Source: a virus
Lineage: Duplodnaviria; Heunggongvirae; Uroviricota; Caudoviricetes
Length of the DNA stretch: 24,021 bases
IMG/VR virus record: IMGVR_UViG_638341084_000025
Reading direction: 5' to 3' (one strand)
A model generated the notes under the pieces. That model was not told the DNA's origin. It was given only the letters and a program-made list of their open reading frames with translations, and made no database searches. A program made the position numbers and the translations under genes. Below, piece by piece: positions 3,183-24,021 of this stretch; position 1 is the first letter of the stretch; each line of letters starts with the position of its first letter.

Positions 3183-3292
3183 GTATATTTATCTCATGGC
3201 TTGTTCTGATTATTTCGGTGGCCTGCGCTATTGGGATTATGCGAATTATTCATTCAATAAAAAAGATTGAACGCTTTTTCACTGGCGAATAA
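3179..3292 (+). CDS. Small hydrophobic peptide (37 aa), single TM; below ORF-track cutoff
   Basis: ATG 3179-3181 overlaps the upstream stop TGA 3180-3182 (ATGA coupling); translation MSIFISWLVLIISVACAIGIMRIIHSIKKIERFFTGE is a hydrophobic helix followed by a basic tail. Locally AT-rich. Confidence 0.3.
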   Translation: MSIFISWLVLIISVACAIGIMRIIHSIKKIERFFTGE

Positions 3293-4187: not shown

Positions 4188-4263
4188 TGCACCTCACAAA
4201 ACGGGTGCCGGGTTTCGCAGCCTGCTGACTACACAAGCGCACAACCGCGCCAGCGGTTTTTTT
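4188..4263 (+). ncRNA. Candidate ~76-nt small RNA: 5' hairpin plus intrinsic terminator
   Basis: Lies between the candidate promoter and the terminator; hairpin GCACC(4189-4193)/GGTGC(4204-4208); no ribosome-binding site or credible ORF inside; carries repeats GTTTCGCAGC and ACTACACAAG that recur in the downstream leader. Confidence 0.25.
4243..4263 (+). terminator. Rho-independent terminator
   Basis: Stem AACCGC(4243-4248)/GCGGTT(4253-4258), 4-nt loop, then a run of seven T (4257-4263). Confidence 0.55.
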
Positions 4264-4275
4264 GTGCGTACTGTA

Positions 4276-4304
4276 TTGCCACGTTTTTTTCGCGTCAGAA
4301 TTAT
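4276..4304 (+). promoter_or_regulatory. Candidate second promoter (TTGCCA-17 nt-AATTAT) for the ORF76/ORF121/A transcript
   Basis: Same -35 hexamer as the upstream candidate promoter; located just after the terminator. Confidence 0.25.
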
Positions 4305-4442
4305 GGCGGGGCGTACGGGGCCGACTTCGGTCGGGCCGGGTTCTTGTGTAGCCGGTACTGCGAACCTCGTACGTCTCGCCACCCACAGTTTCGCAGCTCT
4401 GGATGGTGAGTTTTCACAACTTACTACACAAGGGGCCACACC

Positions 4443-5117: not shown

Positions 5118-7940
5118 ATGACGGCAGAGTATATCAGGGACTGGCAACAACCGCGCCACGCAGTGGGGCGTGAAGGAACGGAGATCCCCGCTCCTGAATC
5201 CGCGCTTTCCTCCTGGCTGGATGCCTACCGGGTAGAGAACGAACGCCGCCAGGAAATGGCTGATGCGGCGTTCTCCGCCACGCCGCTGGGCAACCTGATT
5301 AATAAAAGCCTGGACGCACAGGAAAAACAGGACAAAACCATCACACTGGCAGGAGACGCCAGAAAACAGGCACGTGGCGCGGTGGATGAAGCCATGGCCT
5401 CACTGCGCCTGCTGCCGTCCTATCTGCGCGATCCGCTTATTCGCCACCTCTCCTTCCTGCGCAAAAAACAGGAAGCCGATCGCCGGAAAGGCAAAAAGAG
5501 CTGGCAGGCTGAACGCTACGCGTGCGGAACCCTGCGCAAAATATTCGAACGTCTGGACCGCACCGACCACCGCTGGCTGACACCGGGTTATCGCTCCCTT
5601 GCCGGACGCGAACGCCTGGATGATTTGCTTTACCTGCCGCAGCTCAACAAACACCAGATACAGACGCTGGCCACCATGACGGCGGCGATGTTCAGCAGCA
5701 CCTTCGAAAAACTCTGCGATGGCTTTGGCGCGACTGATGGCGAGCTGACCATGGATGTAACGCTGAAGGCTTATCAGATGCTGGCCCGCATGGCGTTACA
5801 CCTGCACGCCATGCCTCCACATTATGACGCACTGACAACAGACAAAGACCGGAGGAACGAACCGGACACGGAGCTGCTGCCGGGCGCAATCCTTCGCCTG
5901 ACCTGTGCGGAATGGTGGAAACGCAAACTGTGGCTGTTACGTTGTGAGTGGCGGGAAGAACAACTCCGCGCCGCCTGTCTGGTTTCCAGAAAAACATCCC
6001 CCTATCTGAGCCAGGACGCGTTAAGCGAGTTTCGCGCACAGCGCGAGAAAACGCGCGATTTCCTGAAAAGTTTCATGCTGGAAAATGAAGACGGGTTCAC
6101 GATTGATCTCGAGACGGTGTATTACGCGGGAGTAAGTAACCCGGTTCACCGTAAGGCAGAAATGATGGCCACCATGAAGGGACTGGAACTTCTGGCCGAA
6201 GCCCGTGGCGACAGAGCGGTGTTTCTGACCGTCACCTGCCCGTCAAAATACCACGCAACAACGGAGAACGGTCATCCGAACCCCAAATGGAACGGGGCCA
6301 CCATGCGCGACTCCAGCGATTACCTGGTTAACACGTTTTTTGCGGCGGTCCGCAAAAAACTGAACCGCGACGGCCTGCGCTGGTATGGCATCCGCACGGT
6401 GGAGCCTCACCATGACGGCACTGTGCACTGGCATATGATGGTCTTTGCACATCCGGACGAGATTGAAACCATCGTGTCCCACGTCTGCGATATTGCCATT
6501 CAGGAGGACCGCCACGAGCTGGGCGATGACATAACTCCGCGTTTTAAGGCGGAGTATGTCGACGGCTCAAAAGGCACACCAACCAGCTACATCGCCACCT
6601 ACATCGGAAAGAACCTGGACAGCCGCGCCGTGGATGGCATCGACCCGAAAACGGGCAAGCCACGCGTTGACCACGAAACAGGTAAATCAATGGCCGAGAG
6701 CGTGGAGCGCGCCATCGGCTGGGCGCGCCTTCACCGGGTCCGTCAGTTCCAGTTCTTTGGCATCCCCTCCCGTCAGGTGTGGCGTGAACTGCGCCGCCTT
6801 GCCAGCCAGATGGCACGCAATCCGGAAGGCCCGCAACGGCTGAAAGATGATGCAATGGATGCGGTACTCGCTGCCGCCGATGCCGGGTGTTTTGCCACCT
6901 ACATTGAAAAACAGGGTGGCGTGCTTGTTCCACGCAAGGACTACCTGATTCGCACCGCCTACGACCTCGCAGATGAGCTGAACGATTACGGCGAACAGAG
7001 CGTACAGATTTACGGGATCTGGTCACCACTCATCGGGGAATCCTCCCGTGTGTGCACGCATCCGGATAACTGGAAGCTGGTAAGACGTAAACCAGAACCG
7101 GAAGACAACGCCCACGAAAATGGTTTTGACCTTCAGGGCGGCCCTGCCGCCCCTTGGACTCGTGGCAATAACTGTCCCCGTGTACAGGAAACAGGCAACA
7201 ACGGGACAGAACAGCCGGAAGAACGGCCAGCACCGTGGCCGCAGCTTCCTGACGGCGTTGAAGTAAATGAATGGATGCGCTCACTGAAACGGCACGAACG
7301 CCGGGCGCTGATGCGTTCGCTTCGTGACAAACAGGCAAAAAACAGCAGCGATGAAATGCAGAACTGGACACAGAGCCGCAAACAGCAGCGGCCTTTGCCT
7401 GATAACCACGAGTTACTCGCTAAAGAATGGCGGGAGTCTGCTGAATCTCTCGGCCTGCATATCGGTGAACAACAGATGCAGCACCTGTTACGGGGCGGCA
7501 GTCTGTACGTTGACGGCAGCATCATTGCACCGCAGGGATTTGAAATTGTACGCAAACCGGATACCCGCCCGGACAGCCGAATCACGCAGCTCTGGCAGCG
7601 TCTGAGCCGTAATCATGGCGTAAGCAGCACGGAGATCCGCCATAACCCGGTCGCCAGCTATCTGGCACAGCTGGGGGCATCAGACCCTGAAGCCGCCGCA
7701 CGCCTGGCATCCACACTTCAGCAGGACCAGAACACCATGAAAACACCCGTTACCGTGCTTTCTGACATGCTGCGCGCCATCCGCGACGCAGAGCACGCAC
7801 AGAGAATCAGTGAAACCACTGAACGCGCCAGCCGCAAAGCAGACCTGCTGCGGGGTGGCCTGACCAGTGGAAACAAAAAACAGACAGAAACGGGACTCAC
7901 GAATCCCGTAAATGAGCAAAAAACGCGCAGCGATATATGA
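5118..7940 (+). CDS. A: Replication initiation endonuclease, P2 gpA family (HUH rolling-circle initiator)
   Basis: 940 aa; HUH-type motif VHWHMMVF and paired active-site tyrosines YIATYIGK as in P2 A; position after the early genes. The C-terminal ~300 aa is low-complexity and appears to extend beyond P2 A (761 aa from memory). Confidence 0.85.
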   Translation: MTAEYIRDWQQPRHAVGREGTEIPAPESALSSWLDAYRVENERRQEMADAAFSATPLGNLINKSLDAQEKQDKTITLAGDARKQARGAVDEAMASLRLLPSYLRDPLIRHLSFLRKKQEADRRKGKKSWQAERYACGTLRKIFERLDRTDHRWLTPGYRSLAGRERLDDLLYLPQLNKHQIQTLATMTAAMFSSTFEKLCDGFGATDGELTMDVTLKAYQMLARMALHLHAMPPHYDALTTDKDRRNEPDTELLPGAILRLTCAEWWKRKLWLLRCEWREEQLRAACLVSRKTSPYLSQDALSEFRAQREKTRDFLKSFMLENEDGFTIDLETVYYAGVSNPVHRKAEMMATMKGLELLAEARGDRAVFLTVTCPSKYHATTENGHPNPKWNGATMRDSSDYLVNTFFAAVRKKLNRDGLRWYGIRTVEPHHDGTVHWHMMVFAHPDEIETIVSHVCDIAIQEDRHELGDDITPRFKAEYVDGSKGTPTSYIATYIGKNLDSRAVDGIDPKTGKPRVDHETGKSMAESVERAIGWARLHRVRQFQFFGIPSRQVWRELRRLASQMARNPEGPQRLKDDAMDAVLAAADAGCFATYIEKQGGVLVPRKDYLIRTAYDLADELNDYGEQSVQIYGIWSPLIGESSRVCTHPDNWKLVRRKPEPEDNAHENGFDLQGGPAAPWTRGNNCPRVQETGNNGTEQPEERPAPWPQLPDGVEVNEWMRSLKRHERRALMRSLRDKQAKNSSDEMQNWTQSRKQQRPLPDNHELLAKEWRESAESLGLHIGEQQMQHLLRGGSLYVDGSIIAPQGFEIVRKPDTRPDSRITQLWQRLSRNHGVSSTEIRHNPVASYLAQLGASDPEAAARLASTLQQDQNTMKTPVTVLSDMLRAIRDAEHAQRISETTERASRKADLLRGGLTSGNKKQTETGLTNPVNEQKTRSDI

Positions 7941-8016: not shown

Positions 8017-8976
8017 ATGAAAATTTACATCGACGACGGCTCCACCAACATCAAGCTGGCATGGACTGAGAACGGCGAACGCCGCAACGCCATCAGCCCG
8101 AACAGCTTCAAGTCGGAATGGTCTGCGCCGTTCGGTGGCTCGCAGCCTGCTAACTACATGCTTGATGGCGTGCGCTATGGTTTTGATCCGGTCAGCGATC
8201 GCTTTGTCCAGACGACCGACACGCAATACCAGTACAGCGATGTGAATGTCATTGCCATTCATCACGCGCTGGTCAAATCAGACATCACGCCACAGGAAGT
8301 GGATGTGGTTGTTACCCTGCCACTGAGCGAATATTTCGACACAAACGCACAGCCGGACATGGCCAACATCAACCGCAAAAAAGCGAACGTCATGCGCCCG
8401 GTGGAGTACCAGAACGGCGAAGCATTCACTATCCGTAACGTACGGGTTATGCCTGAATCCATTCCGGCTGGCTTTAAAGCACTGGCTGACATGAGTCCGT
8501 TTGAATCCCTGCTGATTGTGGATTTGGGCGGAACCACGCTGGATGTGGCAAAGGTTCAGGGGCAACTGGCAGGTATCAGCCAGGTGTTTTGCGATCCACA
8601 CGTAGGCGTTTCTCTTATGGCCGATGCCGTACTGTCGGTGATGGCCACTAACGGTATGCGCACCAGTCACCACATCGCCAATACCATTATCGAACATCGC
8701 CATAATGAAGCCTGGCTGCGCCAGCACATCCACAATGACGCGCATTACGCCAGCCTGATGGCGGTTATTCGTGAAAAGGAAGAAACACTGAAACAACGCG
8801 TGATCCGCGCGCTGGCGGTTTTTTCGGGTTACGGGCGGGTGATGGTTGTCGGTGGCGGGGCGGAGATTGTGGCACCCGCTATCCGCGAAGCCTGCGGAGT
8901 TAATGCGACTTTCATCGCGGACGGGGTGCCACANTTTGCTCTGGTTAATGGGCTGTACGCAATGGACAAGGAGTAA
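8017..8976 (+). CDS. parM: Actin-like segregation ATPase ParM/StbA
   Basis: 319 aa; MKIYIDDGSTNIKLAW, YSDVNVIAIHHAL, VMPESIPAG, LIVDLGGTTLD and VMVVGGGAEI closely follow the remembered plasmid R1 ParM sequence. One N at 8934. Confidence 0.85.
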   Translation: MKIYIDDGSTNIKLAWTENGERRNAISPNSFKSEWSAPFGGSQPANYMLDGVRYGFDPVSDRFVQTTDTQYQYSDVNVIAIHHALVKSDITPQEVDVVVTLPLSEYFDTNAQPDMANINRKKANVMRPVEYQNGEAFTIRNVRVMPESIPAGFKALADMSPFESLLIVDLGGTTLDVAKVQGQLAGISQVFCDPHVGVSLMADAVLSVMATNGMRTSHHIANTIIEHRHNEAWLRQHIHNDAHYASLMAVIREKEETLKQRVIRALAVFSGYGRVMVVGGGAEIVAPAIREACGVNATFIADGVPXFALVNGLYAMDKE

Positions 8977-8980
8977 ACCA

Positions 8981-9292
8981 ATGACGACACCAACCAGACG
9001 GATAAGTTTCTATCTGAAGCCCGCCGCCGTCAAGAACGAAGGAGAAGCATGCGCCTGGCTGGACAGCCTTACACCAGAAGCCCGCAAAAGCGGCCAACGC
9101 GTGGCTTTTCTGGCCGGGCTGGCACTTCTGAAGACGAATCCGGCAGAGGCTTACCGACTGGCCGCATGGGCTGATGATGAGATGTTACCTGTGACACAAA
9201 TCAGCTCAAAAAAGTTTGAAGCACAGTCTGCACCAGTGGCTAAGATAACCAGCCAGATGGCTGGGAATATCCGGGCGTTATTTCCTGAGTAA
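8981..9292 (+). CDS. parR: ParR-like centromere-binding adaptor (putative)
   Basis: 103 aa immediately after parM (stop 8976, ATG 8981, RBS AAGGAG); N-terminal RISFYLKP...ACAWLDSL and FLAGLALL loosely resemble R1 ParR (RHH fold). Assigned mainly by position and size. Confidence 0.45.
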   Translation: MTTPTRRISFYLKPAAVKNEGEACAWLDSLTPEARKSGQRVAFLAGLALLKTNPAEAYRLAAWADDEMLPVTQISSKKFEAQSAPVAKITSQMAGNIRALFPE

Positions 9293-10103: not shown

Positions 10104-10362
10104 GCGTTTCAGGGGGTAAATAGCATNCCCTGAACGATGTCGCAGNGANANAACAGAATGGCTGTATTTCTCACGCTGAGCGTGAAAAAGACGTGAGGGC
10201 TTTTGATTTGATGGGGTGAAAGGTAAGGCCGTCAAAATCGCACTGAGACGGCGAGAACATGCAGTCAACGCGGTGGGATTGCGTAAGAGTCTGACTGTCG
10301 ATGATGGCAATCAGCAGGAAAGCGTCGTGAAATTATCTGACTGATACAGGAGCTGGAGAGTC

Positions 10363-21096: not shown

Positions 21097-21697
21097 TTCG
21101 TTGTTACCACCATCAGCCAGCAATTTCATGCGTTGTGCCGAAGCCGTCGGAACACGCATTACAGACATTCCGGTAGACCTCAACACGCTGTGGTCGCCGG
21201 ACACCTGCCCGGTGCATCTGCTGCCTTATCTCGCCTGGGCGTTTTCCGTTGACCGCTGGGATCGCAACTGGCCGGAAGAGACAAAGCGACAGGTGATTCG
21301 TGATGCATGGCTGATACACCGACACAAAGGGACCATCAGCGCACTGCGAAGAGCCGTGGAGCCTCTCGGTTACCTGATTGAAGTAAAGGAGTGGTGGCAA
21401 CTCAACGAGGAGCCGGGAACATTTCGCATTGTTGTCGGAGTACTTGATCAGGGCATCACCGATGAAATGTATCAGGAACTTGAGCGCCTTATTGCGGATG
21501 CAAAACCAGTAAGTCGCCATCTGACGGGGCTGGCGATCAGCCTGAGTGTGAACGGAAAGATTTTCGTTGGTACGGGATGCTATCACGGCGATGCCCTGAC
21601 GGTTTATCCCTACACCCCGGAGTCCATTATTGTCGAAGGGGACTATTTCCCTGCCCCGGCCATTCATTTAATTGATAATCTGAGAGTAAACGCATGA
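21089..21697 (+). CDS. I: Baseplate protein I (P2 gpI)
   Basis: Start at ATG 21089, overlapping the J stop; LWSPDTCPVHLLPYLAWAFSVDRWD and ERLIADAKPVSRHLTGL parallel P2 I. Confidence 0.85.
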   Translation: MSNSLLPPSASNFMRCAEAVGTRITDIPVDLNTLWSPDTCPVHLLPYLAWAFSVDRWDRNWPEETKRQVIRDAWLIHRHKGTISALRRAVEPLGYLIEVKEWWQLNEEPGTFRIVVGVLDQGITDEMYQELERLIADAKPVSRHLTGLAISLSVNGKIFVGTGCYHGDALTVYPYTPESIIVEGDYFPAPAIHLIDNLRVNA

Positions 21698-23304
21698 CAG
21701 TGAAATACTACGCCATTCTGACTAATCAGGGCGCGGCACGACTGGCTAACGCGACGATGCTCGGCAGTAAGCTGAATCTGACGCAAATGGCCGTTGGTGA
21801 TGCAAATGGTGTGTTACCAACACCAGACCCTGCACAAACAAAACTGATTAACCAGAAACGCATTGCACCGCTGAATCTTCTGAGTGTTGACCCTAACAAT
21901 CAGAGCCAGATTATTGCGGAGCAAATCATCCCTGAAAACGAGGGAGGATTCTGGATCCGTGAGATTGGTCTTTATGATGATGAAGGTGTACTCATTGCGG
22001 TGGCAAACTGCCCGGAAACGTACAAACCGCAGTTGCAGGAAGGCAGTGGTCGTACCCAGACTATCCGCATGATTCTGGTTGTCACGAACACCGAAGCCAT
22101 CACGCTGAAAATCGACCCGTCTGTGGTTCTGGCAACCCGCAAATATGTGGATGATAAAATCTCAGAGCACGAACAGTCACGACATCACCCGGACGCCTCG
22201 CTGACCGCAAAAGGTTTTACTCAGTTAAGCAGTGCAATTAACAGTGAATCAGAAACACTGGCCGCAACACCGAAAGCAGTTAAGGCTGCATATGACCTGG
22301 CTGACGGGAAATATACCGCCCAGAACGCCACCACAACACAAAAAGGGATTGTTCAGCTCAGTAGCGCCACGAACAGCACGTCTGAAACGCTGGCAGCAAC
22401 ACCAAAAGCTGTTAAGGCGGTAATGGATGAAACGAACAAGAAAGCACCATTAAACAGCCCGGCACTGACCGGAACGCCAACAACACCAACAGCGCCACAG
22501 GGGACTAATAGTACCCAGATCGCAAGCACGGCTTTCGTTATGGCCGCGATTGCCGCACTTGTAGATTCGTCACCTGATGCACTAAACACGCTGAGCGAAC
22601 TGGCTGCGGCGCTGGGCAATGACCCGAATTTTGCGACCACCATGACTAACGCGCTTGCGGGTAAGCAACCGAAAGATGCCACCCTGACGGCGCTGGCCGG
22701 GCTTGTTACTGCGGCAGACAGGTTTCCGTATTTTACGGGGAATGACGTTGCCAGTTTGGCAACCCTGACAGAAGTCGGGCGGGATATTCTTGCGAAATCG
22801 ACCGTTGCCGCTGTTATCGAATACCTCGGTTTACAGGAAACGGTAAACAAGGCTGGTAACGCCGTTCAGCGTTCCGGCGATAAAATGACCGGAGAACTGA
22901 AAATTGGAACGATGAATGCGCTGCGAATTTTTAATGATGCCTTCGGTCTTATTTTCCGCCGTTCAGAAGAGTCCCTTCATTTCATCCCTACGGCTGAAGG
23001 ACAAGGCGAAAACGGTGATATCGGCCCATTAAGGCCATTCGCTATAAATCTAAGAACAGGTGCTATATATGTCAGCCACGGGGCCAAAATTGAAGGAGGT
23101 CTAGCTATTGGTGCTACTGATAACGCACTGGGTGAAAACTCCATTGTTCTGGGAGATAACGACACCGGATTTAGGCAAGATGGAGATGGTATTATTAGCT
23201 TCTATTCAAATGGTTCGCGCATCGGACATATTGATGGGTTAGGATTACATCTTTATAAAGATATTGAATCTAATTGCAGCAATTTTAGATTAAAAAGTAA
23301 TTAG
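21694..23304 (+). CDS. H: Tail fibre protein H (P2 gpH-like), 3' end abutting IS2
   Basis: 536 aa; conserved N-terminus MTVKYYAILTNQGAARLANA; internal duplicated tail-fibre repeat (QLSSAxNSxSETLAATPKAVKA twice); AT-rich 3' portion; its stop codon TAG (23302-23304) is the first three bases of the IS2 left end. Confidence 0.85.
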   Translation: MTVKYYAILTNQGAARLANATMLGSKLNLTQMAVGDANGVLPTPDPAQTKLINQKRIAPLNLLSVDPNNQSQIIAEQIIPENEGGFWIREIGLYDDEGVLIAVANCPETYKPQLQEGSGRTQTIRMILVVTNTEAITLKIDPSVVLATRKYVDDKISEHEQSRHHPDASLTAKGFTQLSSAINSESETLAATPKAVKAAYDLADGKYTAQNATTTQKGIVQLSSATNSTSETLAATPKAVKAVMDETNKKAPLNSPALTGTPTTPTAPQGTNSTQIASTAFVMAAIAALVDSSPDALNTLSELAAALGNDPNFATTMTNALAGKQPKDATLTALAGLVTAADRFPYFTGNDVASLATLTEVGRDILAKSTVAAVIEYLGLQETVNKAGNAVQRSGDKMTGELKIGTMNALRIFNDAFGLIFRRSEESLHFIPTAEGQGENGDIGPLRPFAINLRTGAIYVSHGAKIEGGLAIGATDNALGENSIVLGDNDTGFRQDGDGIISFYSNGSRIGHIDGLGLHLYKDIESNCSNFRLKSN

Positions 23305-23392
23305 ACTGGCCCCCTGAATCTCCAGACAACCAGTATCACTTAAATAAGTGATAGTCTTAATACTAGTTTTTAGACTAGTCATTGGAGAACAG

Positions 23393-23758
23393 ATGATTGA
23401 TGTCTTAGGGCCGGAGAAACGCAGACGGCGTACCACACAGGAAAAGATCGCAATTGTTCAGCAGAGCTTTGAACCGGGGATGACGGTCTCTCTCGTTGCC
23501 CGGCAACATGGTGTAGCAGCCAGCCAGTTATTTCTCTGGCGTAAGCAATACCAGGAAGGAAGTCTTACCGCTGTCGCCGCCGGAGAACAGGTTGTTCCTG
23601 CCTCTGAACTTGTTGCCGCCATGAAGCAGATTAAAGAACTCCAGCGCCTGCTCGGCAAGAAAACGATGGAAAATGAACTCCTCAAAGAAGCCGTTGAATA
23701 TGGACGGGCAAAAAAGTGGATAGCGCACGCGCCCTTATTGCCCGGGGATGGGGAGTAA
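23393..23758 (+). CDS. insC: IS2 transposase OrfA (InsC)
   Basis: 121 aa, [56 protein letters not shown]... essentially identical to IS2 InsC as remembered. Confidence 0.9.
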
Positions 23759-24021
23759 GCTTAGTCAGCCGTTGTCTCCGGGTGTCGCGTGCGCAGTTGC
23801 ACGTCATTCTCAGACGAACCGATGACTGGATGGATAGCCGCCGCAGTCGTCACACTGATGATACGGATGTGCTTCTCCGTATACACCATGTTATCGGAGA
23901 GCTGCCCACGTATGGTTATCGTCGGGTATGGGCGCTGCTTCGCAGACAGGCAGAACTTGATGGTATGCCTGCGATCAATGCCAAACGTGTTTACCGGATC
24001 ATGCGCCAGAATGCGCTGTTG
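23716..24021 (+). CDS. insD: IS2 transposase OrfB (InsD), 5' part only, -1 frame relative to insC
   Basis: From GTG 23716: [40 protein letters not shown]...[12 protein letters not shown], matching the IS2 InsD N-terminus; truncated by the window edge. Confidence 0.85.

Follow-up and report, generated by a model that had tools for sequence, protein, structure and literature searches.

Source and gene content of the locus

The stretch of DNA analysed, hereafter the window (24,021 nucleotides), is the last 24 kb of the draft contig AAJX02000034.1 of Escherichia coli B171, a contig that breaks inside the insertion element IS2 at position 24021. The host of the P2-like prophage is the enteropathogenic E. 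coli B171. The gene order upstream of the tail-fibre gene H was of the V-W-J-I type, with gpI (PF09684) located directly 5' of H, and the 536-aa H protein was identified by exact-sequence look-up as EDX28795.1, 'gpH', of E. coli B171. The window contained 12 N.

The map of IS2, H and the invertase described below is a composite of three B171 contigs of the same assembly, GCA_000167895.4, namely AAJX02000034.1 (window), AAJX02000102.1 (locus L009) and the 82-kb contig AAJX02000019.1 (locus L011). Each of the three breaks off within either IS2 or the constant part of H, and no single molecule covers the whole region. The features of the window are the following:

21694..23304, plus strand: truncated tail-fibre gene H, 536 codons and a TAG stop; longest open reading frame (ORF) of the region, from the ORF list and its translation
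21694..22813, plus strand: Hc, the constant part of H, not included in the invertible segment; most related P2-like prophages cease to be homologous at about 22740-22854
22814..22839, no strand: gix-type 26-bp crossover site, TTATCGAATACCTCGGTTTACAGGAA; three genomic contexts turn identical exactly here
22840..23301, plus strand: variable fibre end (Sv), 5' part, lying within the invertible segment; 462 bp, GC 0.426
23297..23301, no strand: left copy of the target duplication GTAAT; the right copy is in L009 at 797-801, followed by TACCGCC... of H
23302..23304, plus strand: stop codon TAG of H, equal to the first three bases of IS2; stands for TAC (Tyr537)
23302..24021, plus strand: left-hand 720 of the 1331 bp of a complete IS2, truncated where the contig ends; begins TAGACTGGCCCCC...
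23393..23758, plus strand: IS2 orfA (InsC/TnpA, 121 aa); NCBIfam NF006928, 'IS2 repressor TnpA', 274 bits (cut-off 229 bits), model positions 1-121 of 121
23710..24021, plus strand: A6G slippery run and start of IS2 orfB (-1 frame); orfB incomplete at the window end

The N-terminus of H (residues 1-150) corresponded to the Phage_tail_fib collar domain (PF12571, E 3e-62, Pfam), and Phage_fiber_2 (PF03406) repeats were also detected with Pfam. The N-terminal collar domain, the fibre repeats and the place after gpI are all those of a P2 gpH-type protein; the complete C-terminal tip of that type was absent, the ORF of the window lacking the last 141 residues.

Characterization of the insertion element

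From position 23302 onwards, thousands of matches in E. coli RefSeq records are annotated as IS2 family transposase. The ends of the element were set from two complete copies, L006 and L007 (IS2 splits ompT in the latter), for which both flanks are present. Each of them is 1331 bp long, starts TAGACTGG, ends GGGGCAAATCCA and is flanked by a 5-bp duplication (GTAAC and GCAAT, respectively). All 720 IS2 bases of the window were identical to these two RefSeq-annotated copies, and the start of IS2 was thereby fixed at 23302, confirming the initial claim that the stop codon of H is formed by the first bases of the element.

An alternative boundary of IS2 was suggested by BLAST matches reaching 5-21 bases upstream, and it was excluded by the two copies starting TAGACTGG. 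These upstream extensions were attributed to chance similarity, because more than 23,000 places were matched and the copies with both flanks fix the end.

The A6G run was read directly at 23710-23716, and identical IS2 copies are annotated in RefSeq as one CDS via programmed frameshift. The -1 frameshift arrangement of orfA and orfB that defines IS2 was found here, with orfB completed on L009 save one discrepant base, and the full length of 1331 bp with the right end ...GGGGCAAATCCA was recovered as a composite of two contigs. The window and L009 share IS2 positions 537-720 (184 bases), which were identical save one extra base in L009; this base may be a sequencing error or may come from a read of another IS2 copy. 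By every sequence feature tested, the element is IS2, of the IS3 family.

Intact homologues and the missing fibre end

The 3'-terminal 502 bp of H are also present, at 95-99.8% identity, in 25 complete E. coli genomes. The intact homologue of E300082 has 677 codons and differs from the window in 3 of 1608 nucleotides and 1 of 536 amino acids. It reads ...AAT TAC CGC CAC... where the window has ...AAT TAG ACT GG in the alignment. The uninterrupted target is AAAAAGTAATTACCGCC. Alignment of H to the intact homologues placed the truncation after codon 536 of 677. With a 200-bp probe placed symmetrically over the insertion point, the target proved uninterrupted in all of the complete E. coli genomes that carry the module (25/25). 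The H-IS2 junction was absent from all 5,426 complete E. coli genomes searched, and its 48-base sequence gave no exact match in the genome-contig or metagenome-contig collections scanned.

The part that is missing from the window, 141 codons in length, bears out that IS2 was inserted into the receptor-binding end of H. A gp37-type trimerisation region (PF20744, residues 542-610) was found in the intact protein only, and the last 66 residues of the intact protein were homologous to the Mu S/S' structures 8JU3 and 5YVQ. The intact gene of E300082 is followed by a 175-aa Caudo_TAP assembly gene, which starts 2 bp past its stop. In Mu S/U and related fibres, the C-terminal tip is folded by an assembly chaperone and contacts the receptor. 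We infer that the truncated H gives no functional fibre; in the window orientation, fibre function would be lost because the chaperone-dependent, receptor-binding tip is lost.

Right junction and genes beyond IS2

The right end of IS2 and the 5-bp duplication were both found on AAJX02000102.1 (L009), the duplication being GTAAT. This contig carries, in this order, IS2 positions 537-1331, GTAAT, the missing 426 bp of H and the 175-aa assembly gene (tfa), and further a second, inverted assembly gene of 177 aa (tfa'). H thus resumes past IS2 with all of its remaining 426 bp, and it does so at exactly the next base after the duplication. GTAAT was also found past the right end of IS2 in L010. The 1621 bp beyond the right junction were identical to the intact relative, tfa included. 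Both assembly proteins (175 and 177 aa) were identified by Pfam as Caudo_TAP; neither of them had a model in NCBIfam.

The ORFs at the right junction were predicted beforehand from the IS2 end, GTAAT and TACCGCC..., and were then sought as exact proteins. The predicted 155-aa ORF, comprising the right end of IS2, the duplication and the remainder of H, was identical to BAG66656.1 of E. coli O111:H-, and the predicted 126-aa ORF of the remainder of H was identical to EDX27705.1 of B171.

It had been stated that no assembly gene is present between H and IS2, and this is correct, as both abut without any space between them. Of the two possibilities then raised for that gene, that it lies beyond the element or that it was lost, the first one holds and the second does not: the gene is intact (175 aa) on L009, and it starts 1331 + 5 + 426 + 2 bases downstream of the present stop of H. 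Since the right junction has GTAAT, the remainder of H and the assembly gene, the contigs indicate a simple insertion with a 5-bp duplication, in which nothing was deleted.

Invertible segment and invertase

The 26-bp site at 22814-22839 matches what we take to be the gix sequence of phage Mu. Three genomic contexts were aligned over it, namely the P2-like H, a Mu-like fibre gene of E24377A and a silent copy located by a recombinase in FDAARGOS_1059, and the point where they converge reads TTATC.AA.ACCTCGGTTTACAGGAA in the alignment. Inverted partner sites were found in loci L001, L002, L003, L009 and L011, with the cores at 3266-3282 (minus strand) in L009 and at 9939-9955 in L011. In the intact relatives, the fibre gene is followed at its 3' side by an assembly gene, an inverted assembly gene, an inverted alternative fibre end and a small recombinase. 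The invertase of B171 is located outside the window, at 9285-9875 of L011; it has 196 aa with Resolvase and HTH_7 domains, it is identical to its counterpart of E300082, and its comparison with Mu Gin (4M6F) gave an E value of 9e-101.

The locus therefore has the composition of the Gin/Cin/Pin/Hin type, that is, an adjacent small serine invertase and two inverted 26-bp sites, one of them inside the fibre gene. Additionally, two fibre ends in opposite orientation were present, as in Gin-type systems: the interrupted Sv with the 175-aa tfa, and S' with the 177-aa tfa' (L009). Because H crosses the gix-type site at 22814-22839 and the inverted partner closes the segment, IS2 can be placed, as far as the assembled contigs tell, within a Gin-type invertible segment, some 460 bp from its edge. 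The segment now measures about 4.3 kb, compared with 2.96 kb without IS2. As a switch, it belongs to the Gin/Cin/Pin class, here combined with a fibre of the P2 gpH type.

The final ~300 bp of H had been described in the original prediction as markedly AT-rich and typical of an exchanged module, and both parts of this description proved accurate. The GC content of H fell to 0.40 over its final 300 bp and to 0.365 over its final 200 bp, compared with 0.52 in the constant part and 0.535 across the whole window. The fall in GC sets in at the gix site, some 490 bp ahead of IS2, and values throughout the invertible segment were 0.42-0.47. The same module was found in P2-like, Mu-like and plasmid surroundings, with 95-99% identity. 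The AT-rich 'exchanged module' of H is the Gin-type invertible segment.

Orientations of the segment in strain B171

To describe the junctions, the interrupted 5' part of Sv joined to IS2 is designated Sv5'::IS2. The window (AAJX02000034.1) contains the junction Hc-gix-Sv5'::IS2, and AAJX02000102.1 contains the junction Hc-gix-S', in which the stretch corresponding to window positions 22170-22847 (3' Hc, gix and 8 bp beyond) was 100% identical to the window. Read on its other strand, L009 runs from S' through gix into 653 bp that were 100% identical to window positions 22170-22822. The end of AAJX02000019.1 carries P2-type tail genes, the intact invertase, gix, Sv5' and 336 bp of IS2, and its Sv5'::IS2, located by the invertase, was identical to the window from gix on, save the last 6 contig bases. 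The ORF predicted for this copy of Sv beside the invertase, from Met398 to the stop supplied by IS2 (139 aa), was identical to EDX29589.1 of B171 and to BAG66659.1 of E. coli O111:H-. The contigs with the minor junctions reach about one Sanger read past gix (653 bp and 815 bp). In total, three of the four possible junctions, representing both orientations, were found in GCA_000167895.4; the fourth, invertase-gix-S', was not retrieved from this assembly.

Two loci were considered as the source of three mismatches between the Sv5'::IS2 copies of B171; the mismatches were really due to a slip of one base within the final 6 bases of a contig.

The junctions Hc-Sv5'::IS2, invertase-Sv5'::IS2 and Hc-S' cannot share one molecule, so the simplest reading is a culture mixed for orientation. 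Coexisting orientations in culture have been described for the fibre segments of P2-like prophages in the EPEC strain E2348/69 (Goldberg et al. 2014, PMC4272514). On the simplest reading of these contigs, which are assemblies of reads and not single molecules, the segment would still be inverting, and inversion would have been ongoing after the arrival of IS2.

The gene formed by Hc and S', designated H', is open over 696 codons; between its product and an annotated 696-aa protein, 15 residues differ. Behind it lies an intact assembly gene of its own (177 aa).

In strain B171-8, a second element has an identical 247-aa S' end (BAG66550.1). Given this element, some of the reads in the small contig could stem from another locus.

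Interpretation

An ordinary transposition of IS2 has very probably knocked out one of two alternative fibre ends, with fibre function as such kept via inversion. A complete IS2 would have been inserted after codon 536 of the 677-codon fibre gene, duplicating GTAAT, and its TAG would end the frame, with the loss of the last 141 residues (gp37-type trimerisation region and Mu S-like tip). In the window orientation, Hc would be joined to the broken end, with the assembly gene behind IS2, and no functional fibre would be expected. In the other orientation, Hc would be joined to the intact S', giving H' of 696 aa together with the 177-aa assembly gene, and IS2 would be located in the unexpressed arm. 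Fibre function would not be lost overall, since the intact S' arm can be brought next to the constant part by inversion, and we infer that H' is functional and the prophage viable. The suspicion that the prophage is tail-fibre defective thus stands for one orientation of the switch only; it does not stand for the other, in which S' and its assembly gene are intact. An enlargement of the segment by 45% evidently does not prevent switching.

The chances are about even that a host-range switch has been turned in this way into an on/off switch for infectious particles. If true, induced lysogens would release fibre-less or dead particles in one orientation and infectious ones in the other.

Two copies of the prophage or of the segment, fixed in opposite orientations and without ongoing inversion in the sequenced culture, would also yield the three junctions. 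B171-8 does have another element with an identical S' end, and draft assemblers collapse repeats, leaving copy number invisible. On the other hand, a prophage of about 36 kb (estimated from the composite map) would have to be duplicated after the insertion, with IS2 at the same base, and the shortness of the minor contigs past gix (653 bp and 815 bp) fits a mixed population. Moreover, the invertase is intact and Gin-like, and mixed orientations are documented for such loci, as in E2348/69 (PMC4272514). Two fixed copies are unparsimonious, and we consider them improbable.

A deletion or rearrangement mediated by IS2, removing the end of H and the assembly gene, had been raised in the original prediction and would suit the window taken by itself, which has one IS2 end only and stops within the element. 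It is very improbable: the right junction shows the matching GTAAT and the next base of H, then 1621 bp identical to the relative including tfa, and the exact chimeric ORF over this junction was deposited independently (BAG66656.1).

That H ends naturally at this position, with IS2 in intergenic DNA, is improbable in the extreme: although the ORF is properly terminated and was submitted under the name 'gpH', the stop is IS2's own TAG replacing TAC, the homologues that are identical up to that base do not end there and go on for 426 bp (141 codons), 25/25 module-bearing genomes are uninterrupted, and the missing 426 bp lie directly behind the right end of IS2 in B171. There is scarcely any likelihood that misassembly of a low-quality draft, with 12 N in the window and a contig ending in a multi-copy repeat, produced the H-IS2 junction; against this stand the same left junction in a second B171 contig and in the Logan assembly of SRR1931652, both junctions in GCA_002466105.1, and the matching ORFs in the independently produced O111:H- records (BAG66656.1, BAG66659.1).

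The preferred reading, a simple IS2 insertion in one arm of a working switch, involves components of known kinds only, and the ORFs are already deposited for B171 and B171-8, annotated as split ORFs. Insertions of IS elements in prophage genes and Gin-type fibre switches are textbook matters. The biological weight of this ordinary, already-sequenced event is small. An IS at the end of a draft contig combined with a flipping segment leads to misleading annotations: the 536-aa 'gpH', the 139-aa 'long tail fiber protein p37' and the 126-aa 'tail fiber protein' are pieces of one gene. Likewise, calling a prophage tail-fibre defective from one contig can mislead where an alternative arm exists. The mildly interesting point is that an IS in one arm of a switch may convert host-range switching into the switching on and off of infectivity.

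Comparison with known systems

Among the closest known systems are the G segment of Mu with Gin, and also the C segment of P1 with Cin and the P segment of e14 with Pin. The catalytic domain of the invertase is almost identical to that of Mu Gin. Common to the Mu G segment and the present locus are the 26-bp inverted sites within the fibre gene and the layout of a constant part plus [Sv-U; U'-Sv'], and the S' tip found here matches the Mu S' structure 8JU3. Unlike in Mu S, the constant part is of the P2 gpH type (PF12571) and located in a P2-like prophage, and one arm is interrupted by IS2.

With genes H and G of P2, the locus shares the V-W-J-I-H order and the N-terminal domain, as well as the Caudo_TAP gene that follows H in the intact relatives. 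To our knowledge, P2 has a single fixed H end and no invertase; unlike in P2, the H end is switchable here, and one version of it is broken.

The invertible loci of EPEC E2348/69 resemble the present one in that both belong to P2-like prophages of EPEC strains in which orientations coexist; unlike in B171, no IS insertion in the segment is reported in the passages on the E2348/69 loci (PMC4272514).

Among 5,426 complete E. coli genomes, none had IS2 in one arm of this tail-fibre inversion switch. Compared with the standard disruption of E. coli genes by IS2, the sequence of the element, its left end, its frameshift site and the 5-bp duplication are the same. The insertion does not differ in kind from the known IS2 disruptions; what is particular is the target, one arm of an inversion switch for phage tail fibres.

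Distribution of the tail-fibre module

BAG66550.1, a protein encoded outside the window, from E. coli O111:H- (B171-8) and annotated as 'alternative part of phage tail fiber protein', is 247 aa long and identical to S', the intact alternative end of tail-fibre gene H at the present locus, so that this second element implies at least two fibre-switch loci in B171-8 with a module in common. Among complete E. coli genomes, 12 of the 27 places carrying the variable-end module of H were on plasmids of 48-134 kb (e.g. NZ_CP023732.1 and NZ_CP047663.1), which are probably phage-plasmids, and therefore one receptor-binding module moves among P2-like and Mu-like prophages and putative phage-plasmids.

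IS2 copies and sequence quality

The three IS2 target duplications examined were alike: GTAAT (window 23297-23301), GTAAC and GCAAT, the last two flanking the complete reference copies in L006 (1201-1205) and L007 (1206-1210); their similarity hints at a target preference of IS2. A single extra base was detected in orfB of the IS2 portion of contig AAJX02000102.1, at position 54 of locus L009 (IS2 position 589/590, about window 23890), being absent from the overlapping IS2 of the window itself and from the reference copies. This base stems either from a sequencing error or from a read that belongs to a different copy of IS2.

The window contains twelve N (3426, 8934, 10127-10151, 10409, 11259, 11273, 11477, 11492 and 15287), two of them in the portal gene. 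Its sequence is of draft quality, which precludes a judgement on the intactness of the other prophage genes.

Replication, partition and cargo genes

The following protein-coding features were located in the window and in L011, the 82-kb B171 contig AAJX02000019.1:

Window 5118-7940, replication gene A, product of 940 aa
Within window 8017-9292, ParM/StbA, 319 aa (PF06406 and PF21523, E about 1e-80)
Within window 8017-9292, StbB-like ORF overlapping the ParM/StbA gene (PF10784)
L011 1256-2278, (+), right end of the B171 prophage, ORF of 340 aa flanked by ogr and gene D

The GPA domain is confined to residues 179-503 of the gene A product, and its N- and C-terminal extensions, both long, had no Pfam matches. 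Pfam matches were likewise lacking for the 340-aa ORF, which may be cargo. The genes at 8017-9292 constitute a plasmid-type partition module in a P2-like prophage, occupying a cargo slot flanked by replication gene A on one side and portal gene Q on the other.

RNAs of the early region

Rfam identified two RNAs in the prophage's early region:

Within window 4189-4386, (+), isrK, 64 bits
Within window 4189-4386, directly after isrK, (+), C4 antisense RNA, 83 bits

This pair is an immunity RNA module of the P1/P7 type within a P2-like genome.
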